Positions 5,461-41,552 of a stretch of 47,147 nucleotides of DNA are shown here, piece by piece; the first letter of the stretch is position 1; the number at the start of each line of letters is the position of its first letter. The stretch is taken from sequence record PZ787336.1; one strand, given 5' to 3'. Source of the DNA: a phage. The translations under genes and the position numbers were made by a program. The notes beneath the pieces are model-generated. The model was not told where the DNA came from and searched no databases. It saw nothing but the letters and a program-made list of their open reading frames with translations.

Positions 5461-5489
5461 TTGACAGTGATTATTTTGTGGTGTAGATT
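5461..5489 (+). promoter_or_regulatory. sigma70-like promoter TTGACA-N17-TAGATT, divergent from the major tail protein promoter
   Basis: TTGACA 5461-5466, TAGATT 5484-5489; no ORF downstream before the terminator at 6009-6034. Confidence 0.5.
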
Positions 5490-6034: not shown

Positions 6035-6403
6035 CACAACCCGCAAAAGTAACTCATGCACAGGTCTTTTCTCTTCCGTTAACATCGGCCTACCGAGCGG
6101 CGCTTGCAACTGGATGTAGTTAACGCATGAATCAATCGGGTGTGTTTTGATGTATTCGATAATCTCATTGGCCTTCGAATCAACATCAGCAACATTGTAT
6201 TGGCCTTGTTTGCCAACAACATACAGCGAAAAATAGAAGTCACCGCCGAGGCCATCCATAACCTGAGTGCCACCGTTGGATTGCAGAACAATAAATTGCT
6301 CACTTCCATCTCCGGTGTCATTCCAGAACTGCAGCTGCGAAGTCCAGCCATCGTACAATCCTGCATCCTGAAGATATGCATCAACCAGTTCAAGCATATT
6401 CAT
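6029..6403 (-). CDS. putative tail terminator / neck protein
   Basis: 124 aa ORF between head-tail joining genes and major tail protein; position-based. Confidence 0.45.
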   Translation of the reverse strand: MNMLELVDAYLQDAGLYDGWTSQLQFWNDTGDGSEQFIVLQSNGGTQVMDGLGGDFYFSLYVVGKQGQYNVADVDSKANEIIEYIKTHPIDSCVNYIQLQAPLGRPMLTEEKRPVHELLLRVVK

Positions 6404-6801
6404 TAGAGTGTCATCTCCTTCTTAATCACGCTATCAACAAGGTCTTTTGTGCGTTGCGCTGCTTTGGTCAGGAATTGTGGTTCACCACCCGGCGACCAAT
6501 ACGTGCCGTTGCCGTTGCTGCGCGGTTTCCCTGCAAGTTTACCGCTGGCATTGTGGACGTACAGTGCATATTTTGCAGAGTAGCCAACCTTGCCAGTGAT
6601 TCGCGTTCCGCTAACTTCCACGGTATCAAACTGACTGTTAATTAGCGTTGATGTATCAATTGGCGTTAGCGTGGCTGATTCGGTGCGGATGATGTATGTC
6701 GCTGACTTAATTGCACGCACAGCTTTCGTGGCGATTATCTCATCCACAATCTGCGATGTTCTCTCTACGGCCTGTCGGACGCCTCTTAATTTCGCTGGCA
6801 T
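6403..6801 (-). CDS. putative head-tail joining protein (HK97 gp10-like position)
   Basis: 132 aa, translationally coupled in the head-tail connector block. Confidence 0.5.
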   Translation of the reverse strand: MPAKLRGVRQAVERTSQIVDEIIATKAVRAIKSATYIIRTESATLTPIDTSTLINSQFDTVEVSGTRITGKVGYSAKYALYVHNASGKLAGKPRSNGNGTYWSPGGEPQFLTKAAQRTKDLVDSVIKKEMTL

Positions 6802-8435: not shown

Positions 8436-8464
8436 TTGACGTAGATTGATGTGGCGTTTATAGT
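8436..8464 (+). promoter_or_regulatory. sigma70-like promoter TTGACG-N17-TATAGT for the ParB/methyltransferase island
   Basis: TTGACG 8436-8441 followed directly by tagattga; TATAGT 8459-8464. Confidence 0.5.
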
Positions 8465-8505
8465 TAGTGACGTAGAAACAACAATAAATGTTAGAGGTGA
8501 TGAAG

Positions 8506-9129
8506 ATGAGTAGTAACGCAAAACATTATGATTATTACATGGTTGAAGGTGATGATGTTAAGAAACTAATCGACGCATACGATGACATCAAGAATCGCCG
8601 CAATGAAATTCTCGGTGACGCAATGAAAAAGGTTGGAGCTGTCGCATTTACCACAACGCGCAGTTGGGGCGCTGTTGGCGGTGGCCTGCTTGAGAGTTTT
8701 GCGTGGAGCAATAAATTTGAATTTCCATGCCCTGTAACAATAAAACGTGAAGATTTTTGGGAAGGTCAGCGCGTGGTTATTGTTCGTGGGAAAGGAAACA
8801 CAAAGGATGGTCGTGAATACAACAAAAAGCTGGACGCAGTGATGCGCGAGGCAAACGAGAAATTAAAGTTATTGCCAGAATGGAAGGACTACATTGTTAA
8901 CCATTATGGCATCGCACGTACCGGCATTGGTGAGCAATCTGGTCGCGGATTTGGTTTTGCAATGCTTTCTACTTATGGAGGCAAACACCCGAAAAAGGAT
9001 GATTGTTTGATTTTTGCTGTGCCAAATACAAAAGATGAAGGTCACGGACGGGTAACGATACCTGATAACTTTAAGCAGATAACCTACGGTCAGTTTTACG
9101 ATATTGCTAATTCTGGTGATGAGGATTAA
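8506..9129 (+). CDS. hypothetical protein (207 aa), first gene of an accessory island
   Basis: ATG at 8506 preceded by AGAGGTGA RBS; ORF track gives 8488; no recognised domain. Confidence 0.6.
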   Translation: MSSNAKHYDYYMVEGDDVKKLIDAYDDIKNRRNEILGDAMKKVGAVAFTTTRSWGAVGGGLLESFAWSNKFEFPCPVTIKREDFWEGQRVVIVRGKGNTKDGREYNKKLDAVMREANEKLKLLPEWKDYIVNHYGIARTGIGEQSGRGFGFAMLSTYGGKHPKKDDCLIFAVPNTKDEGHGRVTIPDNFKQITYGQFYDIANSGDED

Positions 9130-9131
9130 TC

Positions 9132-9323
9132 ATGGCAAACATGTCCTACTGTCGATTTCGTAATACAGAGCAAGACTTCAATGATTGTGTTGATGCAATT
9201 GGCAACATTGAGTCTATTGGTGACTTAAGTAATGCAGAACGCAAGTCTGCTGAGCGCCTGTACCATCTTGCTAATGAGTACGTCGCATATTACGAGCAAT
9301 TATTGGAAGAAAGTGGTGAATGA
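9132..9323 (+). CDS. hypothetical small acidic protein
   Basis: 63 aa ORF tightly packed between neighbours. Confidence 0.5.
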   Translation: MANMSYCRFRNTEQDFNDCVDAIGNIESIGDLSNAERKSAERLYHLANEYVAYYEQLLEESGE

Positions 9324-9324
9324 T

Positions 9325-10134
9325 ATGAAAACACTTAGCAAAATCTATTCAGACAAAGAAACGCGCAACGGAATCGCTGTTAACAAAACCTATCTCGTGC
9401 CAGTGGAGCAAATCTATCTGGAGCCGGGATACAACATCCGCGAAGCAGACGAGCAGCATGTGGAGTATTTCGCGCAGTGCTGGGAATCAGGTCAGCCATT
9501 ACCAGCATTAACAGTTATTCCTGATGAGAAGGGAATCCGCATTCTTGATGGTCAGCATCGCTATCTAGGCGCATTGCGTGCCATTGAGCGTGGCGCACCA
9601 ATTGTTCGTATTGAGTGCAAGGATTTCACAGGAGGCGAAGCAGATAAAATCGCCTTCATGGTGTCGTCCAGTCAGGGTAAGCAGCTTGACCCGTTTGAAC
9701 GCGCAAAGGCTTACACGCGACTGAAGGGTTTTGGCTGGACCAACGAGGAAATCGCCAAGAAGGTAGGGCGCTCAGTTTCTGACGTGCAGATGCACCTGTC
9801 ACTGGGTGATGTGCCAGCCGAAGTAAAAGCGCGAATCAGTGCAGGGCAAATCAGCTATGCAAATGCCGTAGCAGTAACTCGCGAACATGGCGATGATGCG
9901 GTTAAAGTTATCGACGAGGCAGTCGAAGAAGCGAAGGCGCAAGGCAAGGATAAGGTAACGGCGAAGGTGCTTAAGTCGAAAAAGATTAAGCCAGTAGACC
10001 GACTGATTGAGTTACTGAAGCCAGCTGACCACGTTATTCTTCCTGCTGGTCATGTAGTGGCAGAGAATGAGGAGTTTATCCAGATTCCTGTTGCTGATAT
10101 TCACGAGGTGATGGCAATTCTGGAGAAGATGTGA
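9325..10134 (+). CDS. ParB-like nuclease domain protein
   Basis: N-terminal ParB/Srx-like region with the GIRILDGQHRYLGA-type motif; start at ATG 9325 directly after the upstream stop. Confidence 0.7.
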   Translation: MKTLSKIYSDKETRNGIAVNKTYLVPVEQIYLEPGYNIREADEQHVEYFAQCWESGQPLPALTVIPDEKGIRILDGQHRYLGALRAIERGAPIVRIECKDFTGGEADKIAFMVSSSQGKQLDPFERAKAYTRLKGFGWTNEEIAKKVGRSVSDVQMHLSLGDVPAEVKARISAGQISYANAVAVTREHGDDAVKVIDEAVEEAKAQGKDKVTAKVLKSKKIKPVDRLIELLKPADHVILPAGHVVAENEEFIQIPVADIHEVMAILEKM

Positions 10135-18738: not shown

Positions 18739-19105
18739 GCCGATTCTTACGGAGGGTAGGCGCGGTAAGTCATGGCTATCCTACCCAAGTCAGTATATGT
18801 ACGATGGCTGGAGAATCGCATTCCCTGCAAAGCATTCCAATGGCAACCCAAGATTGGCTATCCTGTTCAATGAACGTAGCAATGAATGCAGCGGAACGGA
18901 AATTCAAACATTCGATTTGTATCTGCCAGCGAGTGGGAGGATGTATGAAGGGAGTGATGACGAAGCCAGATTTAGGAAGGAAAACTCACCAGCTGCCTAC
19001 ATCGTTACGGATAATCGAGGTAAACGCTATCTGGTGTTTTCTGGTAGCACTGAGCATCAGAATGCAATTATGTTTGGGTACAAGATGGAGGCGCTTTATG
19101 CGTGA
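18728..19105 (+). CDS. hypothetical protein
   Basis: 126 aa from ATG 18728 with GGAGG RBS; the track ORF starts earlier at 18680. Confidence 0.45.
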   Translation: MASKPILTEGRRGKSWLSYPSQYMYDGWRIAFPAKHSNGNPRLAILFNERSNECSGTEIQTFDLYLPASGRMYEGSDDEARFRKENSPAAYIVTDNRGKRYLVFSGSTEHQNAIMFGYKMEALYA

Positions 19106-19130
19106 CATTGGCTACGGAGAAGGTTAAAAC

Positions 19131-19156
19131 AAAGCCCCATCACGGGGCTTTTTTAT
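19131..19156. terminator. bidirectional rho-independent terminator
   Basis: GCCCCatcacGGGGC followed by tttttt, preceded by A-run. Confidence 0.65.
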
Positions 19157-19631
19157 TACGCAGAGAATTATACTGTGCCTCACACGTCAATCCTGCCTCT
19201 CTCGCCCTGTCAGCGTAATCTGCCAGCTGTTGATTTCTTTCGACAGATTTGCGGAGCACGTCTGCAAGCAAAACTCCGGTTTCTGCGGCTGGGTTGCCAA
19301 TGGACTCAGCGGTGGAATATCCGACGAGCTGCTTGCGGATACTGGTGAGTTGTTGCTGCAACCTGCCAGACTTAGCGACAGCATTAACAGCATCATTGCG
19401 CGCAGCATCAATCCTTTGCTGTGCGTCGGCCTGAATCTTTTGCAGTTCTGCATTGCGTCGTTGCTCCTCTTGTTCGTCTGCGGCCTTCTGTTCTGCGACT
19501 GCCTTCGCGTATCCGGCGGCATATTGTTGCTCGCCATAACCGGACACTTTATTTGCCACCCACAACGCGCCAGCGGCAACAATTATAATAATTGCCAGCG
19601 GTCGCCAGTATTTAACGAGAATCGACATCAT
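19140..19631 (-). CDS. Rz: i-spanin (Rz-like)
   Basis: 163 aa, N-terminal transmembrane helix, Ala/Gln/Arg-rich coiled-coil-like periplasmic region; follows endolysin and holin candidate. Confidence 0.65.
   Translation of the reverse strand: MMSILVKYWRPLAIIIIVAAGALWVANKVSGYGEQQYAAGYAKAVAEQKAADEQEEQRRNAELQKIQADAQQRIDAARNDAVNAVAKSGRLQQQLTSIRKQLVGYSTAESIGNPAAETGVLLADVLRKSVERNQQLADYADRAREAGLTCEAQYNSLRNKKAP
19187..19408 (-). CDS. Rz1: o-spanin (Rz1-like lipoprotein) embedded in the Rz gene in another frame
   Basis: MLRAMMLLMLSLSLAGC signal with LAGC lipobox, Pro-rich mature part, fully nested in 19140..19631. Confidence 0.5.
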   Translation of the reverse strand: MLRAMMLLMLSLSLAGCSNNSPVSASSSSDIPPLSPLATQPQKPEFCLQTCSANLSKEINSWQITLTGRERQD

Positions 19632-19851: not shown

Positions 19852-20311
19852 GCCACAGCTCCGCCAGCCTCTTTGTATACCTGAATCAGCTTATCCAGCT
19901 TCTGCTCATGCTGACCATACCCAGCGCCCGGCAATGAGGCCCAGCGGGAGCGGCATTTATGGATGGCATCAGCAATGCGACCAGCCTCAATATCAGCGGT
20001 GGCCTTGCATTCACGGATTAGCTGCATTGCAATGGCGTCCTGCGATGCGGGGAGAAGTCCGGTAAACGCAATTGCTTTTTGTACGCATCATAAAACTTAG
20101 CCAGTACCTGATAGCGACCGGCGGCGGTGGATTTAATGCCCAGCCTTGGCAGGCTAATCAGCTTGCGCGGGTGGTCGGAATAGTCGGTAAACAGTGAGCC
20201 GCCAACAATCACATCATAACCATGATTATTGGTTTTCTGCCGCCCGTTATCAGTGCCCTCGCTGTACGCCAGCATATCCAGAAACGCCTTCATGTTTTTA
20301 CTAATAGCCAT
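19848..20311 (-). CDS. endolysin, lambda R-like lytic transglycosylase, apparent -1 frameshift
   Basis: N-terminal KAFLDMLAYSEGTDNGRQKTNNHGYDVIVGG...DFSP closely matches lambda R; the C-terminal SQDAIAMQ...WASLPGAGYGQHE continues in another frame after a C4 run (plus 20049-20052). Confidence 0.8.
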
Positions 20312-20579
20312 ACCAGTAAACCTCTTTTTCAGCTTTGCGTTTTGCTTTGTCGCCAGTCTTCTCGCCCCACGCGATGAAATGCGCAACAGCACATGAGAAG
20401 CAGCGGAGGTTGTGCTTCTTCAGAAGCGTTGATTTACGGAACGCGTAAATGCCAATGTCGGTGGCAAGACTTGCCAGCGCGTCGAACTGATTCTGCGTTG
20501 TCTCGGTAGTGATGTAAGGCGATACATCCACGGCATCGGTAATTCCAAACGTCTCCACGCCTCGTTGCGATAGTTTCAT
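20301..20579 (-). CDS. hypothetical protein upstream of endolysin
   Basis: 92 aa with GGAGG RBS; stop overlaps the endolysin ATG; no clear transmembrane helix, so not called holin. Confidence 0.4.
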   Translation of the reverse strand: MKLSQRGVETFGITDAVDVSPYITTETTQNQFDALASLATDIGIYAFRKSTLLKKHNLRCFSCAVAHFIAWGEKTGDKAKRKAEKEVYWYGY

Positions 20580-20623: not shown

Positions 20624-20654
20624 TTGACGTAGATTGAGTGGTGGTGCATAGTAT
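20624..20654 (+). promoter_or_regulatory. sigma70-like promoter TTGACG...TAGTAT
   Basis: TTGACG 20624-20629 followed by tagattga; TAGTAT 20649-20654; 30 nt upstream of the ATG at 20685. Confidence 0.5.
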
Positions 20655-20684
20655 CTACATCAAATGATGAGTGAGGGAGAAATC

Positions 20685-20828
20685 ATGGCAATAGTCAAAT
20701 TCAAAGAAAGCGGTTGTCGCAGAATGTTCAGCCTTGAGCAAATCAAAATCCGTCCGTGCGGCAAGGTGGTTGCGCCATTTAGTCTGGTGCAGATGCGCGA
20801 AGTTGAGATTGTTGAATATATTAAGTGA
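20685..20828 (+). CDS. hypothetical small protein (47 aa)
   Basis: GAGGGAG RBS; below the track length cutoff. Confidence 0.35.
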   Translation: MAIVKFKESGCRRMFSLEQIKIRPCGKVVAPFSLVQMREVEIVEYIK

Positions 20829-20836
20829 GGTTGGTG

Positions 20837-21088
20837 ATGAAAGAATTTAAAGGAATCCCTGGGTCGTGGCATTACGATGATGAACTTGGTGGGGTCTATA
20901 GTAATGGCGACCAATTCGTGTGCGATGTTACCAATAAGGATGATGCCAACGTCATCGCTGCAGCACCTGAGCTTCTGGAGGCTTTGCAGAAAATGCTCAG
21001 TAAAGCGTATAAGCAAAACTGGAATGACGCATACCCAGAAGTGATTAAATCAGCACAGGATGCAATCAACAAAGCGCTAGGAGAATGA
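20837..21088 (+). CDS. hypothetical protein, paralog of 38762..39043
   Basis: shared EFKG..G(A/S)W, IAAAPELL.ALQ and AINKALG motifs with the second copy. Confidence 0.5.
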   Translation: MKEFKGIPGSWHYDDELGGVYSNGDQFVCDVTNKDDANVIAAAPELLEALQKMLSKAYKQNWNDAYPEVIKSAQDAINKALGE

Positions 21089-21089
21089 A

Positions 21090-21740
21090 ATGAAACTTAT
21101 CGAACTGTTAGTTCAAGAATTACCTAAGCGTGGTGGGTGGAACGAAAACTGGGTGGTGGTTACGCAAGATGCCGACGGCTATTTCTGTTGCTGGCGTTAT
21201 GATGACCCAAGATACAATGGATTTGGCTGGAGACACAGAACAGGAAAGGGTTTAGTTGGATACTGGCGAGTTGATAATGATGTTGTTTTATCATGCGACA
21301 GTACGAAGGCAATGGTAACTAGAAGCCAATACGAATCCGCACTCGCAGCATCACAAAAGCCAACATGGAGCGGCGAAGGCCTACCTCCAGTTGGTGCAAA
21401 AGTAGAATTCTTCATCAATCCAAAGTTAGGATACCGCAATGCCTGGATTCCTGATGCCGGCACTGAAATGGAAGTTGTGGCGCACAAGACAACAACGGAC
21501 GGAAACGATGTTGCTGTTTGCTATTGGGATGAAGGTGGTGCTGGTCGGTCATGCTGCTTCGTACCGGAAAGCCTAAAACCACTACGCACAGAAGCAGAAA
21601 GGAAACATGAGGCCGTACTTGAATCTATCTGTGCGGTATTAGAAATGGTGGCGCAAGATTACAAGCGCGAGGATGGGGCCAAGCTAATTTATGAAGCCAT
21701 CGCAGCAGGCAAAATTCCCGGCGTGAAACTTGATGATTAA
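21090..21740 (+). CDS. hypothetical protein (216 aa)
   Basis: ORF followed by a terminator; no recognised domain. Confidence 0.5.
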   Translation: MKLIELLVQELPKRGGWNENWVVVTQDADGYFCCWRYDDPRYNGFGWRHRTGKGLVGYWRVDNDVVLSCDSTKAMVTRSQYESALAASQKPTWSGEGLPPVGAKVEFFINPKLGYRNAWIPDAGTEMEVVAHKTTTDGNDVAVCYWDEGGAGRSCCFVPESLKPLRTEAERKHEAVLESICAVLEMVAQDYKREDGAKLIYEAIAAGKIPGVKLDD

Positions 21741-21814: not shown

Positions 21815-21845
21815 ACCAAGCCCTCACTTAGAGGGCTTTTTGTTT
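21815..21845. terminator. bidirectional rho-independent terminator
   Basis: AAGCCCTCacttaGAGGGCTT followed by tttttgttt. Confidence 0.65.
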
Positions 21846-27309: not shown

Positions 27310-27338
27310 ATACTATGCGCTCGGTGTAGATTTGTCAA
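27310..27338 (-). promoter_or_regulatory. sigma70-like promoter TTGACA-N17-TAGTAT on minus strand
   Basis: plus tgtcaa 27333-27338 and atacta 27310-27315; immediately downstream of the terminase large subunit stop. Confidence 0.5.
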
Positions 27339-36395: not shown

Positions 36396-38317
36396 TGCAT
36401 AAAATCGACAAAATGATTTCAGAGATTGATATTAATCTGCTGAAATCTTATCTGGATACTGGTGATATCGAGCCAAGACCCTATCAGTGGTTGATATATA
36501 AGTTAACTGGCGATGTGATTCGTCATTATGTTGGCCCAAGCTATGTAACAGCAAGTGTCGGTAGCGGAAAGTCACTGATGATTGCCATGATAGCAAAGCG
36601 TTTTCAGGAGATGGGCTATTCAGGGATGATTTTATCAAGACAGGGCGAAATAGTGGAGCAAGATGCGGAAGAGCTATGGTTGCTTGGTGTTAGAAACTCG
36701 CTATTCAGTGCTTCGTTGGGTAGGAAAAGTTCTACGTACCCAATAATCTGTGGTTCTGAGGGTACTGTTGTAAATGCTTTGTTTGATAAAAAAGATGAGC
36801 ATGGGAATGTTATTGCAAAAGGTGCGCTCTCTGACTTTTGCCCAAGATTCCTGCTGATCGATGAAAATCATATGGTTAATGACATTGATGTTGTTAATAA
36901 TGGTGATACGCAGTATGCAGTGATAATTAATGAGCTAATGAAAAGGTGTAAAGATAAGCATGGCCATGAGTTGAGAATAATAGGTTATACAGGCTCACCG
37001 TTTCGCGGAACTACATCAATAAAAGGCGCTTTCTGGAAGAAAGAGATTATCAACATAGACACCAAGTACATGGTTGAAAACGGTTTTCTTGTTCCAACAA
37101 TTTTTGGTCTTCGTGATGTTGATAGTCTGCATTATGACCTTTCGGATTTTCATGGTTCAGATGTTGATGGTACTCAGGACTTTACCGCCGAGCAGCTCAA
37201 GCAGATGCAGAAAGAAATTCTTGAGCAAGGTACGTTGACGCAGAAAATCATGCTCAAGGTTATGGAGTTGACTAAAAACAGAAACGGCGTACTGATTACA
37301 TGTGCTGGTAAAAAACATTGTCAGGAGGCGGCAAAATACCTACCCGAAGGAAGTTATTCAATAGTTACAGAAGATATGGGGTCAAAAGCCAGAAGGAAGG
37401 CTCTAAAAGATGCATACACCGGGCGTAAAAAATTCACATTCCAGATAGCCGCCCTTACCACTGGCGTAAATATACCGTTATGGGATACGAGCTGCATATT
37501 GCGAAAAATAATGTCGCTAACTCTCCTTGTCCAGCTTCTTGGTCGCGGAATGCGCCTACTGAAGAAAGAGCAAATTGATGCCGGGTATCATAAAGAAGAC
37601 CATCTGGTTCTTGATTTCTCTGGCACGATGTTTGAGCTTGGTCAGCTGTATGAAGACCCGATTCTGGAAGAGGCTGAAGCGCAACGTTCAAAACGCAGTG
37701 GCGAACAAGTTCCGTGTCATACATGTGGAACAATGAACAGCCCATATGCGCGTCGATGCATAGGGAAAGACCCGCTATCTCCAGATGGTCGCTGCGAAGA
37801 ATTTTTCAGTTACATCCGTTGCGGTTTTGATAAGCACGGAATCCGGATTTTTGATGATGGTTGCGGCACTAAAAACGACCCCACTGCGCGCTATTGCAGA
37901 CATTGCGATCACGTGTTGCGCGACCCTAATTCGGCACTGAATGAGCGTGCTTATACAGATAACGAGTGGGCTGATGTTATGGATTTCAAGGTTCAACTAA
38001 CGAAGGACGGAGAGGGGATTTTATATCGCTACTGGATTAACCGTTGTGATGGCAAAGAAGGCTGGGCTAATGAAGTTTTCTACCCTTATGGCGGCGCAAC
38101 TCACATGAAAAACATGTTCAAGGCAAAGGCGGTTTTTCCTCACCTTGATGATAAGTCAATGGCTTGGAAAATACTGAAATGCCAGAACGCCAAGCAATTC
38201 ATGATGTATGCGGGATTAATTAAAGCGCCAAAACGCATAACGCATCGAATTAATGATAAAGGCAGAGACATAATCCACCGCAAAGAATTTAAAGGAGAAC
38301 AAAGTGAAGCAGCTTGA
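36395..38317 (+). CDS. SF2 DEAD/DEAH-box-type helicase with Cys-rich C-terminal region
   Basis: Walker A ASVGSGKS, LLIDENH DExH box, LGRGMR motif VI; several CxxC pairs in the C-terminal third; the track ORF starts at 36389. Confidence 0.8.
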   Translation: MHKIDKMISEIDINLLKSYLDTGDIEPRPYQWLIYKLTGDVIRHYVGPSYVTASVGSGKSLMIAMIAKRFQEMGYSGMILSRQGEIVEQDAEELWLLGVRNSLFSASLGRKSSTYPIICGSEGTVVNALFDKKDEHGNVIAKGALSDFCPRFLLIDENHMVNDIDVVNNGDTQYAVIINELMKRCKDKHGHELRIIGYTGSPFRGTTSIKGAFWKKEIINIDTKYMVENGFLVPTIFGLRDVDSLHYDLSDFHGSDVDGTQDFTAEQLKQMQKEILEQGTLTQKIMLKVMELTKNRNGVLITCAGKKHCQEAAKYLPEGSYSIVTEDMGSKARRKALKDAYTGRKKFTFQIAALTTGVNIPLWDTSCILRKIMSLTLLVQLLGRGMRLLKKEQIDAGYHKEDHLVLDFSGTMFELGQLYEDPILEEAEAQRSKRSGEQVPCHTCGTMNSPYARRCIGKDPLSPDGRCEEFFSYIRCGFDKHGIRIFDDGCGTKNDPTARYCRHCDHVLRDPNSALNERAYTDNEWADVMDFKVQLTKDGEGILYRYWINRCDGKEGWANEVFYPYGGATHMKNMFKAKAVFPHLDDKSMAWKILKCQNAKQFMMYAGLIKAPKRITHRINDKGRDIIHRKEFKGEQSEAA

Positions 38318-38729
38318 TAGCGGCATATGGGTATTTGATAGCGGTTATCGTGGTGAGTGTCCTAAAGAGGAGACTGACCAGATGGGTTACGGAACATGGA
38401 TGCAACACCGCTTCCCTGATGTTCTGTGGTTTCATGTACCCAACGAAACTGGCACATCAAGCAGGGTGCAGTTTGTGCTGAAGCGCCAGAAGATGGGGGT
38501 TAAGGCTGGTATAGGCGACAATGTGATAATGACTCCGGGGGTAAATCACAGTTGTGGGATGATTGAAGCAAAGCGTCGCGATAAAAGCAAAAGCAGGGTG
38601 AGCAAGGAGCAATCGTCCGTGTTAACTGAGATGTGCAGGCTTGGTCATTATGCCGCCATCGCTTACGGTCTTGATGAACTAAAAAAAGCCACACTTTTCT
38701 ATTTTGGCTTGCCTTTCGATGTAGATTGA
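38304..38729 (+). CDS. VRR-NUC domain nuclease
   Basis: 141 aa with GIGDNVIMTPGV...GMIEAKRRD...SKEQ pattern consistent with the VRR-NUC fold; the 3' end runs into the promoter motif. Confidence 0.65.
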   Translation: MKQLDSGIWVFDSGYRGECPKEETDQMGYGTWMQHRFPDVLWFHVPNETGTSSRVQFVLKRQKMGVKAGIGDNVIMTPGVNHSCGMIEAKRRDKSKSRVSKEQSSVLTEMCRLGHYAAIAYGLDELKKATLFYFGLPFDVD

Positions 38730-38737
38730 TGTAGATT
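38709..38737 (+). promoter_or_regulatory. sigma70-like promoter with tandem GTAGATTGA / GTAGATTCA elements
   Basis: TTGCCT 38709-38714, N17, TAGATT 38732-38737; 24 nt upstream of the ATG at 38762. Confidence 0.45.
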
Positions 38738-38761
38738 CAACTGACAATAACAAGTGAGGTA

Positions 38762-39043
38762 ATGAAGATGAGTAACGAATTCAAAGGTACTAAAGGTGCG
38801 TGGAGAGTAGTGGTTGGTGATGACAATTCGCCTGATATTGTAGCTGATGGTGGAGTTGATATTGCCAGCACGCCAACATATAACGGGGATAAAGATGAGC
38901 AGTGGCACAATGCATACCTCATAGCCGCCGCCCCAGAACTCTTGAGTGCTTTGCAAGCATGTCTAGGATGGGTAAATAATGGTATTTCTCGTGACGCACA
39001 TAATCAAGCGATTACAGCAATCAACAAAGCGTTAGGCAAATAA
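38762..39043 (+). CDS. hypothetical protein, paralog of 20837..21088
   Basis: shared motifs EFKGTKGAW, IAAAPELLSALQ, AINKALG. Confidence 0.5.
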   Translation: MKMSNEFKGTKGAWRVVVGDDNSPDIVADGGVDIASTPTYNGDKDEQWHNAYLIAAAPELLSALQACLGWVNNGISRDAHNQAITAINKALGK

Positions 39044-39045
39044 CT

Positions 39046-39984
39046 ATGAAAGTCTACTTCAACAATGAACTCACAAACGAACAGTACCATGCCGACACAG
39101 AGCACATTAATGGTTCTGGATTATGGAATATACTTGACAGATGCCCAGCAGCATGGCGCTACAAAGACGAAGAAGATGAGCAATCAAAAGCTCTTATCTT
39201 CGGAACTGGAAGCCATACTGCACTACTTGAACCTGAGCGTTTCGATGCAGAATATGCGCGAATGCCAACAAAAGAAGATTTTGGTGATGACCTGCTTGTT
39301 ACAGTTAGTGACATGAACTCATGGGCGAAAGAGCGTGGCATTAAAGGACTATCAGGGAAGTCGAAAGCTGAGGTAATCAAAATTATTCAGGCGACTGGCG
39401 AACCAGTGAAAATTTACGATGTCATCCGTGAAGATGCTGAAAAAGCTGCTGCAGGAAAGCAGATGCTGGAAGGTAGTGATTATGACGCAATTCAGCAAAT
39501 GCGTGCTGTAATACACGCAAACAGCTACTACAGCAGCCTTCTTGCTGGCGCTTATGCTGAAGTGTCAATTCTCGGTGAACTTAACGGAGAAAAAGCAAAA
39601 GTTCGTTTTGACTGCCTGACAAAAGGTGGTGACATTATTGACTACAAAACGGCAGTGAGCGCCAAGCCTGAAGAGTTTTTCCGTCATGCTGCGCGACTTG
39701 GCTACTTTATGAAAATGGCTATGCAACACGATATGTTTGTTGCTGCATACGGTTATGCGCCACGCTCTGTTAATCTTCTCGTTCAGGAAAAGAAAGCACC
39801 ATTTATTCCTGCGTTAATTCGCTTGACTGAAGAGCAATTACGCATCGGTCGAATTCAGTTGCATGGCGCTATGGAAATTTACAAGGCGTGCAAAAAAGCC
39901 AATTCGTGGCCCGGTTATTCAATGGGTAATCCTGTCATAGAAATGGAAACGCCTGAATGGTTCAAAAAACAGTTTAATTTATAA
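39046..39984 (+). CDS. PD-(D/E)xK family exonuclease (RecE/YqaJ-like recombination nuclease)
   Basis: 312 aa with D...DIIDYKT-type nuclease motif; lies in a recombination module upstream of the ATPase and SSB genes. Confidence 0.6.
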   Translation: MKVYFNNELTNEQYHADTEHINGSGLWNILDRCPAAWRYKDEEDEQSKALIFGTGSHTALLEPERFDAEYARMPTKEDFGDDLLVTVSDMNSWAKERGIKGLSGKSKAEVIKIIQATGEPVKIYDVIREDAEKAAAGKQMLEGSDYDAIQQMRAVIHANSYYSSLLAGAYAEVSILGELNGEKAKVRFDCLTKGGDIIDYKTAVSAKPEEFFRHAARLGYFMKMAMQHDMFVAAYGYAPRSVNLLVQEKKAPFIPALIRLTEEQLRIGRIQLHGAMEIYKACKKANSWPGYSMGNPVIEMETPEWFKKQFNL

Positions 39985-39992
39985 TTAGTGAG

Positions 39993-41042
39993 GTGATGAA
40001 AATGGGTATTCTCAATATTAAACCAGCAGAGCGTTCAGGTTCTCGTGTAGTCATCGGTATTTCAGGCCAGTCTGGTAGCGGAAAAACATACAGCGCACTT
40101 AAGCTGGCTCGCGGGATGGTTGACTCACCAGAAGAAATCGGATTCCTTGATACTGAAAATGGTCGCGGTCGCCTGTACTCAAACATCCTTGATGGCAAAT
40201 TCCTGCACGCTGATATGTATGCTCCATTCAGCCCGGCCCGTTACCGTCAGGCCATTGAAGAGTTTCAGGCTGCCGGCGTTAAGGTTCTTGTTATTGATTC
40301 AGGTTCGCATGAATGGGAAGGTGAAGGCAGTTGCACGGAGATTGCTGAAAAGCCGCTGCTTAACGGTAAAAAGATGGCTGACTGGAAGCGCGCCAAAGCT
40401 GAACACAAGAAGTTCATGAATGCCATGCTACAAAGCAATATGCATATCATTGTCTGTCTTCGCGCTCGCCAGAAAACTGACTTCGCAAACCCGAAGGAAC
40501 CTGTATCACTTGGGTTACAGCCAGTGTGCGAGAAAGATTTCATGTTCGAGATGACCGTGAGCATGATGATGCACGATGGAGGAAAAATTCAGGAGTTCAC
40601 CAAATTACCAGAAGAGCTACGCCCCATCTTCTTTGAGTCTGGTCGTGAAAGCGTTCGTCATGGCTATATTGGAGAGGCTCATGGTCGAGGACTCATCAAA
40701 TGGGTGGACTCTGGTGTTAAAGTTGACGAAGAGTTTGAATCATGGCGCTCACGACTTCAGCTTTCAGCAGCAAAAGGAATGGAAGGACTGAAGGAAGAGG
40801 CGAAATCAATACCTGATAACCTGAAAGATAAGATTCGTGCAATATGGCCTTCTCTCGCTGCTTCTGCTGCTGAATATGATCGCATTGAGTCTTTTATCAA
40901 TGATGAGCAATTATCTCCTGTGGTAATAACTCCGCAGGATAATTTCGACCCTGCAAAACTGGCTAAACCGCAACCACAACAGCCAGAGCCACAGGAAGAA
41001 ACCAAAACCGAACATAAACCAACTCCAATTGAAGGATTTTAA
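39993..41042 (+). CDS. RecA-like / AAA ATPase (Sak4-like recombination ATPase candidate)
   Basis: Walker A GQSGSGKT and Walker B VLVIDSG; Pro/Gln-rich C-terminal tail. Confidence 0.6.
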   Translation: MMKMGILNIKPAERSGSRVVIGISGQSGSGKTYSALKLARGMVDSPEEIGFLDTENGRGRLYSNILDGKFLHADMYAPFSPARYRQAIEEFQAAGVKVLVIDSGSHEWEGEGSCTEIAEKPLLNGKKMADWKRAKAEHKKFMNAMLQSNMHIIVCLRARQKTDFANPKEPVSLGLQPVCEKDFMFEMTVSMMMHDGGKIQEFTKLPEELRPIFFESGRESVRHGYIGEAHGRGLIKWVDSGVKVDEEFESWRSRLQLSAAKGMEGLKEEAKSIPDNLKDKIRAIWPSLAASAAEYDRIESFINDEQLSPVVITPQDNFDPAKLAKPQPQQPEPQEETKTEHKPTPIEGF

Positions 41043-41045
41043 TAA

Positions 41046-41552
41046 ATGGCACGCGGCGTAAATAAAGTAATTATTGTCGGCACTCTCGGAAACGACCCTG
41101 AAGTTAAATATTCAGCATCAGGCTCTGCAATTGCCAACCTTTCTGTTGCAACATCTGAGCAGTGGAAAGATAAGCAGACAGGAGAAAAGAAAGAACAGAC
41201 CGAGTGGCATCGCGTGGTCATCTTCGGGAAACTTGCTGAGATTGCAGGCGAATACCTTCGCAAAGGTTCTCAGGTTTATATCGAAGGCCAGCTACGCACT
41301 CGTAAGTGGACTGACAGCAACGGCGTGGACAAATACACCACTGAGATTGTCATTCCGCAGATGGGTGGTGTTATGCAGATGCTTGGTGGTAGACGTGATG
41401 ATTCTGATCAGCAACAACCACGCCAGCAATCAGGACAGCAACCTCAAGGTGGATGGGGGACAAATCCGCAACAACAACAGCCACAAAAACAACAAAGCCC
41501 ACAAGGAGGCAATGAGCCGCCGATTGACTTCGACGACGACATTCCGTTCTGA
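41046..41552 (+). CDS. ssb: single-stranded DNA-binding protein
   Basis: OB-fold N-terminal region, Gln/Pro/Gly-rich linker and acidic C-terminal tail DFDDDIPF. Confidence 0.9.

Follow-up and report, generated by a model that had tools for sequence, protein, structure and literature searches.

Two diverged members of the phage protein family PF27050 as probable interchangeable cargo behind conserved promoter-leader modules in a Skatevirus-cluster genome

The DNA analysed here, a stretch of 47,147 bases (the window), carries two related small genes. The first, copy 1, lies at positions 20837..21088 on the plus strand and encodes a protein of 83 aa with a pI of 4.6; the second, copy 2, lies at 38768..39043 on the plus strand and encodes a protein of 91 aa (93 aa if the start at 38762 is used) with a pI of 4.8. 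Both open reading frames exist on the plus strand, and the motifs EFKG..G.W, IAAAPELL.ALQ and AINKALG, on which a first-pass annotation had called the two proteins paralogous, were all found in them. The window is an essentially complete genome of a small siphophage of Salmonella and E. coli, and it belongs to a virulent siphophage of the Skatevirus cluster. Two compared stretches of 2 kb are 97.0-99.6% identical to Salmonella phage vB_SenS_ST1UNAM (ST1UNAM), 96.7-98.2% identical to Escherichia phage vB_Eco_ZCEC08 (ZCEC08), and about 90% identical to KFS-SE2, 64795_sal3, swi2 and the BASEL isolates Bas77-81, a group which has been placed in the BASEL cluster "Skatevirus" of siphoviruses with genomes of 46-48 kb (PMC11990801).

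Copy 1 stands second in a unit of three genes that has its own putative promoter and terminator and is situated between lysis and head genes (locus A). Consensus scanning and pattern searching identified a promoter-like module at 20624..20654 on the plus strand, which can be read as sigma-70-like TTGACG-N19-TAGTAT or N17-CATAGT and is flanked by a GTAGAT / ATCTAC inverted repeat (GTAGAT-N15-ATCTAC). The first gene of the unit is a 47-aa ORF (20685..20828, plus strand), which matches phrog_21280 and has no known domain. Copy 1 is followed by a gene of 216 aa (21090..21740, plus strand; phrog_7798), which starts 1 nt past the stop codon of copy 1, has no Pfam domain and is modular in structure. 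The unit is closed by a bidirectional terminator-like hairpin at 21818..21838, and in the relative Skate a terminator is annotated at the equivalent place; for the promoters and the terminator of both loci described here, the evidence is at the level of consensus. Transcription of the whole unit runs opposite to that of the flanking lysis genes and of the Mu-F-type head gene. In the endolysin region (20018..20579, minus strand) the closest relatives annotate two overlapping genes, encoding a 92-aa 'lysozyme' and a 154-aa 'lysozyme-like' protein, and phage 6947 has a single lysozyme of 146 aa.

Comparison with relatives showed that Skate, 6947 and metagenomic relatives have an almost unchanged copy of the 41-nt promoter sequence of locus A, ATTGACGTAGATTGAGTGGTGGTGCATAGTATCTACATCAA, and that just past it the sequences diverge at once and the relatives have different first genes. 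The unit, with a member of the same family in it, was present at locus A in every relative examined, with the allele varying: in some relatives it is 89-100% identical to copy 1, and the alleles of Skate, INT55 and Akira share 58.8% identity with copy 2. A natural in-frame deletion was seen in a public contig of 44,955 bp, where residues 1-55 of copy 1 run directly into the final 76 residues of the product of the 216-aa gene to give a protein of 131 aa (P0064). This suggests that copy 1 and the 216-aa gene are both dispensable in at least one natural genome. The 216-aa gene was also considered as a clue to function and was set aside; apart from its lack of a Pfam domain, its longer homologues represent internal domain insertions and not fusions with the small protein. 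These homologues, 294-308 aa in length, contain an extra middle domain (WIEWGGGECPV ... DIIAYRLH), and all end in IYxAIAAGKIPGVKL.

Copy 2 is the first gene after a promoter at a different place in the genome (locus C). Upstream of it lies a gene of 141 aa (38304..38729, plus strand; phrog_824), which is annotated as 'VRR-NUC domain' in OQ469755 (ST1UNAM) and gave no match in the local copy of Pfam. The 3' end of this gene holds the promoter-like module of locus C (38709..38737, plus strand), a sigma-70-like TTGCCT-N17-TAGATT element with a shared extension, TGATGTAGATTCAA, and the site overlaps the stop codon of the gene. Copy 2 is followed on the plus strand by a gene for a PD-(D/E)XK exonuclease (DUF3799 / 'exonuclease VIII'; 39046..39984) and then by genes for an AAA_24 Sak4-like protein (39993..41042) and SSB (41046..41552). 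As to the start of copy 2, the second ATG at 38768, giving a protein of 91 aa that begins with MSNEFKG, is more likely than the ATG at 38762, the GAGGT ribosome-binding site being spaced 7 nt from the former and just 1 nt from the latter. The 91-aa form is also the version found in public gene calls.

To the claim of paralogy, the results of alignment, profile search and structure prediction lent clear support. BLASTP aligned copy 1 with copy 2 at 38% identity over about 92 columns (E=3e-10), which is well above chance. The phrog_1273 profile matched both proteins, with E=2.8e-20 for copy 1 (residues 1-83) and E=1.1e-19 for copy 2 (residues 3-93), and AlphaFold2 predicted one topology for the two, with pLDDT values of 90.6 and 83.6, respectively. 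A housekeeping domain, which would have spoken against the claim, was not found. When all six frames of the window were scanned with a profile built from 143 diverse family members, exactly these two ORFs were recovered (E=1.9e-30 and 1.3e-26), and there was no third family ORF in the window.

Profile evidence of two kinds indicates that copies 1 and 2 are members of PF27050 / phrog_1273, a very large phage family. The phrog_1273 profile was scored directly, and the assignment to PF27050 rests on precomputed tags, which are attached to the exact copy 1 protein and to the 91-aa form of copy 2 (P0001); all listed homologues in a large protein collection bear the same tag. Both copies are full-length matches that agree with the family in length, in conserved blocks and in predicted fold. 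The three blocks FKGTPGxW, NAxLIAAAPELLEALQ and AxxAIxKALG are all found in each of them (3/3), and at 83 and 91 aa they are stand-alone single-domain proteins of three strands plus helices, like most of the family (about 85-120 aa). They differ from most members in detail: in copy 1 the variable sheet region is the shortest seen (about 23 variable residues, the family median being 41), and copy 2 carries a less common C-terminal variant.

PF27050 (Phage_P22_Y8K6) entered Pfam recently under a placeholder-type name and has no recorded function, and we found no mention of PF27050, of phrog_1273 or of the AAPELLEAL motif in the literature searched. When 1.84 billion cluster representatives were searched with a profile, 78,356 proteins reached E<=1e-3 and 2,489 reached E<=1e-10. 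Among the 150 matches listed, most are stand-alone proteins of 85-120 aa and a few are tandem doubles. Other members of the family include BTP1_034, mEp213_049 and ST104 ORF18.

For both copies the predicted fold is a compact single domain, in which three short strands are followed by a helix-Pro-helix element and C-terminal helices. Alignment of the 143 diverse members revealed three conserved blocks, which in copy 1 numbering comprise residues 1-11 (M-x-E-F-K-G-T-P-G-x-W), 35-51 (A-N-A-x-L-I-A-A-A-P-E-L-L-E-A-L-Q) and 73-82 (A-x-x-A-I-x-K-A-L-G), the remainder being variable. Mapped on the model, the N-terminal FKGTPGxW runs into the three-stranded sheet, NAxLIAAAPELLEALQ forms the helix-Pro-helix, with the invariant proline of IAAAPELL at the kink, and AIxKALG ends the C-terminal helix. 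The conserved residues are mainly hydrophobic or small, and no evident catalytic residues were seen among the conserved positions of the 143-member alignment. Members are mostly acidic, with a median pI of 5.1 across the same set. Two segments, the sheet region and the helices past the Pro kink, are hypervariable in both sequence and length; the first of them ranges from 27 to 66 residues in this alignment.

The variable segments are also found in new combinations. The chimeric proteins P0002 and P0003 join an N part of the copy 2 type (66-72% identity) to a C part of the copy 1 type (94-97%); a further 25 proteins have an N part of the copy 2 type with a third type of C part, and 77 combine other N types with a C part of the copy 1 type. 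Such combinations indicate that the two variable segments recombine independently among family members.

Searches for proteins of known function or structure gave no match. Neither protein had a significant match in NCBIfam, in PADLOC or in the local copy of Pfam, which does not contain PF27050; comparison with PDB sequences, using either a single protein or a profile of 53 sequences as query, yielded matches at chance level only; and Foldseek searches of the PDB with the models of both copies found nothing credible and no solved structure. The closest folds found by Foldseek, at probability 1.0 and a TM of up to 0.80, belong to uncharacterised phage proteins in BFVD, among them proteins of Olleya, Brucella and Caulobacter phages. 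No likeness in sequence or fold was seen to known anti-defence proteins, including the DNA mimics Ocr and ArdA, the RecBCD inhibitors Gam, Abc2 and gp5.9, and others for which Pfam models or solved structures exist.

A metagenome submitter had given both exact window proteins the name 'Ead/Ea22-like', and we therefore compared the family with those proteins. A Pfam scan of both copies gave no match to PF13935 at E<=1. The PF27050 profile scored 15-19 bits against the N-terminal domain of full-length Ead/Ea22-like proteins (E ~1e-7 for one comparison), compared with a maximum of 5.1 bits among 1000 shuffled control sequences, and hhalign aligned the family with this domain at E=8e-4. In E. coli prophages, the N-terminal domain of full-length Ead/Ea22-like proteins (KATSGVW ... 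ANAEFIAAANP) follows the same pattern as the family, with K-x-T-x-G-x-W, strands and then NAxFIAAA(N)P, and the two groups are alike in being mosaic, acidic, early accessory proteins. We concluded that PF27050 represents the stand-alone form of the Ead/Ea22 N-terminal domain and that the homology is distant. Ea22 itself is a tetrameric protein of 140-200 aa with a central coiled coil and a variable C-terminal domain (PMC10834534). The window proteins have neither, ending 35-40 residues past the shared domain, and because the coiled coil and the C-terminal domain are missing, we rejected the view that they are Ead/Ea22 proteins. The PF27050 gene also differs from Ead/Ea22-like genes in genomic position, even in prophages carrying both. 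Lambda Ea22 was considered as a relative and discarded; it did not match the family profile and lacks the greater part of the shared segment. The Ea22 variants of Stx phages have an N-terminal segment of 63 residues that is absent from lambda Ea22 (PMC10834534).

We then examined the promoter modules. The TTGAC-N18-TAGATT module has three exact occurrences in the window (3717, 5461 and, on the minus strand, 32144), against about 0.02 expected by chance according to our own calculation. The locus C element is one mismatch away from this pattern, and its extended -10 region is common to the three exact copies. It is the full promoter pattern alone that is enriched; the short motif GTAGATTGA, unlike it, was not enriched as a stand-alone repeat (15 found against 10.7 expected, with one mismatch allowed). 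The earlier statement that each gene stands behind its own copy of the promoter module was correct in that both lie downstream of members of a repeated sigma-70-like module. It did not hold in two respects: the promoters are fixed to their loci and are present in relatives that do not have the gene (Bas81, Skate), and copy 1 is not directly behind its promoter but second in an operon, with the 47-aa ORF in between. The 'early' timing ascribed to these promoters is not readable from a sigma-70-like consensus alone.

Two further features of these modules were noted. GTAGAT / ATCTAC hexamers stud the promoter modules at 20629..20655, 8441, 27310..27338 (minus strand), 32114 (minus strand), 36079 and 38721..38739, and a second box, GACGTAGAAACA(A/T)CAATAAA, occurs after the modules at 8470 and 36100; the hexamers and the second box could be operator sites for a phage regulator. 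An exact TTGACA-N17-TAGATT at 5461..5489 (plus strand) has no plus-strand ORF of at least 50 aa within about 600 nt, the ORFs listed there being on the minus strand only, and what this module transcribes may be very small genes, or else an antisense or non-coding RNA.

Among 50,697 phage records, copy 2 was found only in ST1UNAM and ZCEC08. In most relatives, the 2-kb copy 2 query aligns in two pieces with a coverage of 84-86%, and the gap between the pieces is read as the absent copy 2 gene of 0.28 kb. Direct comparison showed that the junction of the VRR-NUC-like and exonuclease genes (window 38729..39046) is empty in Bas81. In HC6 and 6947 the same junction is occupied by an HNH endonuclease gene that has a TTGCAA-N16-TACAAT promoter to itself, and in Skate (37502..37718) by an unrelated 58-aa phrog_7393 gene; for Bas77/79, an HNH is also listed under the match at this junction. 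These comparisons indicate that copy 2 is a presence/absence polymorphism and occupies a slot bounded by the nuclease-like and exonuclease genes. The TTGCCT-N17-TAGATT element with TGATGTAGATTCAA was found also in Bas81, where the site is empty, and in Skate, where the cargo is different. Because the element is shared in this way, the locus C promoter is a resident one, fronting the exonuclease-recombinase-SSB genes and belonging to the locus and not to copy 2, which was placed between the promoter and the exonuclease gene.

A third slot was recognized in Skate, which has two family genes; the second (gene 044, 123 aa) comes first behind a promoter ahead of a ParB-like gene. When the stretch 8436..9129 of the window (plus strand) was compared with Skate 19077..19560, the promoter and leader of this third slot were found in the window too, at 8436, but the gene that comes next is a 213-aa phrog_2260 gene, and the ParB-like gene lies downstream (window 9232..10134) as in Skate. 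The mechanically called start of the 213-aa gene at 8488 (MLEVMKMSS) is probably too early, and a start at MKMSS or MSS suits the ribosome-binding site. Since the leader GAGGTRATGAAGATGAGTA is common to the 213-aa gene and to copy 2, although these first genes are unrelated, conserved leaders together with conserved coding blocks may supply the homology for cassette exchange.

In the first-pass annotation the two genes were described as duplicated and diverged, that is, gene and promoter would have been duplicated inside this genome and the copies would then have drifted apart. The presence in one genome of two homologous genes, each with a related promoter-like module upstream, is in favour of this picture, but the comparisons did not bear it out. 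The variable parts of copy 1 and copy 2 are 26% and 34% identical, and in the conserved blocks most synonymous positions differ; for these reasons the two genes are, as far as their sequences tell, anciently diverged and separately placed members of one family, with no recent duplication. Moreover, the alleles of Skate, INT55 and Akira at the copy 1 locus are nearer to copy 2 than copy 1 is, copy 2 is confined to two phage records with its site empty or holding unrelated genes in close relatives, the locus C promoter is found also in relatives without the gene, and the chimeric alleles point to exchange with an outside pool. These results contradict a duplication within this genome, which we regard as highly improbable. 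Taken together, the comparisons at locus A, at locus C and at the third slot of Skate indicate that the genes are interchangeable cargo behind conserved promoter-leader modules.

To gain a wider view, the surroundings of family genes in other genomes were inspected. The family gene is part of the PL operon in P22-like and lambdoid phages and prophages (BTP1_034, mEp213_049, ST104 ORF18 and four enterobacterial prophages), with N and ral preceding it and cIII, kil, the recombinase and the anti-RecBCD genes following; in prophages it is upstream of erf, recT or rad52. In BTP1 the family members are located between ral and cIII, where P22 has instead gene 17, orf87 and orf78. Two P22 proteins, gp17 (from the same prophage slot) and EaD, were translated as possible relatives and rejected, as no family motifs were seen by eye. 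In three of four prophage contexts (L010-L012, from E. coli and related bacteria) the PF27050 gene is followed by a domainless gene of constant size, 62 aa (6282..6470), with overlapping stop and start, which could be a lineage-specific partner. Across 80 viral loci from IMG/VR, no constant neighbour was found. The genes encountered within four genes of the family member were those for a TraR/DksA-type zinc finger (11 loci, always as the next gene), RecT (11), ParB-like protein (7), methyltransferase (6), YqaJ-type exonuclease (6) and Erf/Rad52 (5).

The two window genes resemble phage morons and the accessory genes of the lambdoid PL operon (ral, abc1/abc2 and P22 gene 17), which are likewise small, dispensable, variable between close relatives and located in fixed slots behind resident promoters, although the window proteins have no relation to Ral, Abc1/Abc2 or gp17 in sequence or fold. 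As in morons, one gene lies in a unit with its own promoter and terminator (locus A) and the other is inserted behind a resident promoter (locus C), both at the level of consensus, and there is presence/absence or replacement among relatives together with signs of dispensability (the copy 2 slot, the locus A alleles and P0064).

On this basis we propose, with low confidence and somewhat short of an even chance, that the proteins are dispensable, non-enzymatic accessory factors in which a scaffold core carries two variable modules that bind a host or defence protein. Transcription of the genes would presumably depend on host RNA polymerase. In the protein, the conserved core would be the scaffold and the two variable surface modules would contact a host protein, or else a defence or competitor protein, and a phage with two different versions would cover two target variants. 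Dispensability is supported by the absence of copy 2 from most relatives and by the natural deletion in P0064. The lack of a constant neighbour in the 80 viral loci argues against an obligate phage partner, and because of this, and of the ral and anti-RecBCD genes found near the gene, the most likely target would be a host or defence protein. The host-takeover or anti-defence function suggested in the first-pass annotation is plausible for both proteins, given their accessory slots and the position of family genes next to ral and anti-RecBCD genes in the PL operon of lambdoid prophages.

Several points speak against a binding role of this kind. None of the searches (Pfam, NCBIfam, PADLOC, PDB sequences and Foldseek against the PDB) matched a known anti-defence or defence family. 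It could also be that the functional site, for one universal target, is formed by the conserved N-terminus and central helix, with the variable parts being tolerated drift, and the frequent recombination and replication neighbours suit a role in DNA metabolism equally well. In addition, BASEL Skatevirus phages have been reported to show marked sensitivity to restriction-modification systems and to Old (PMC11990801); therefore the family gives no obvious broad protection against these.

The main rival explanation is that the protein is an accessory factor of phage DNA metabolism, which would modulate either the phage's own recombination and replication machinery (exonuclease, Sak4-like protein, Erf or RecT annealing proteins, SSB, ParB-like protein) or host RecBCD. 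Copy 2 stands directly ahead of the exonuclease-AAA_24-SSB genes, the second copy of Skate stands directly ahead of the ParB-like gene, and both the neighbours counted in the 80 viral loci and the prophage genes upstream of erf, recT or rad52 fit with such a role. Furthermore, the relative Bas81 is restricted by a retron reported to sense inhibition of RecBCD together with Red-type recombination (bioRxiv 10.64898/2026.04.27.721009). On the other hand, no single neighbour of this sort occurs in more than about 14% of the 80 loci, copy 1 has none, the same exonuclease operon runs without copy 2 in most relatives, prophages with the family gene also carry a dedicated anti-RecBCD gene, and direct binding of DNA by so acidic a protein is unlikely. 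We consider this explanation unlikely on balance.

It is less probable still, in our estimation, that the gene is a largely neutral passenger, a cassette spreading by means of the homology of promoter-leader and coding blocks with little benefit to the phage. The presence/absence polymorphism, the several alternative cargo genes in the slots, the HNH homing endonuclease at the same site in relatives and the leader GAGGTRATGAAGATGAGTA in front of unrelated first genes would all be expected of a passenger. But the ORFs are intact, three blocks are strongly conserved over tens of thousands of lineages, which points to purifying selection on the protein, and a locus A member is kept in all relatives examined.

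A regulatory role, either in the lysis-lysogeny decision as for lambda Ea22 or as a DNA-binding regulator of GTAGAT-containing promoters, is very improbable: the distant homology to the Ead/Ea22-like N-terminal domain, the report that Ea22 favours lysogeny (PMC7093339, PMC10834534) and the GTAGAT repeats around promoters are outweighed by the lack of an integrase or repressor in the inspected parts of the window and of the Skate record, by the absence from the window proteins of the Ea22 coiled coil and C-terminal domain, with the lambda Ea22 that was studied being itself without most of the shared domain, and by the acidic pI and lack of a DNA-binding motif, the acidity being the reason why the promoter-binding variant was dropped.

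If the binder reading, with its scaffold core and two variable modules, is extended to the family as a whole, PF27050 would be among the largest unstudied families of modular phage binders, in which a scaffold presents two shuffled specificity cassettes from promoter-proximal slots and neutralises variable targets in immunity or takeover, the Ead/Ea22 proteins being oligomeric, extended versions. We offer this wider proposal as a speculation that is rather unlikely to be right in full.

The analysis turns two 'hypothetical' genes of the window into named members of a catalogued family, and it explains their layout by swappable cargo slots behind fixed promoter-leader modules in place of a duplicated promoter-gene unit. 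The arrangement of both genes is typical of mosaic phage genomes and will appear ordinary to a phage specialist. The family itself is distinguished by its spread over tens of thousands of lineages, by a confidently predicted fold without a solved match, by its link to Ead/Ea22 and by its mosaic of two cassettes. Since it is large, is not mentioned in the literature searched, has an N-terminal link to Ead/Ea22 and is of mosaic design, PF27050 is a reasonable, though not urgent, candidate for functional screening, and the BASEL Skatevirus isolates and the P22-like phage BTP1 are tractable phages in which the family may be studied.
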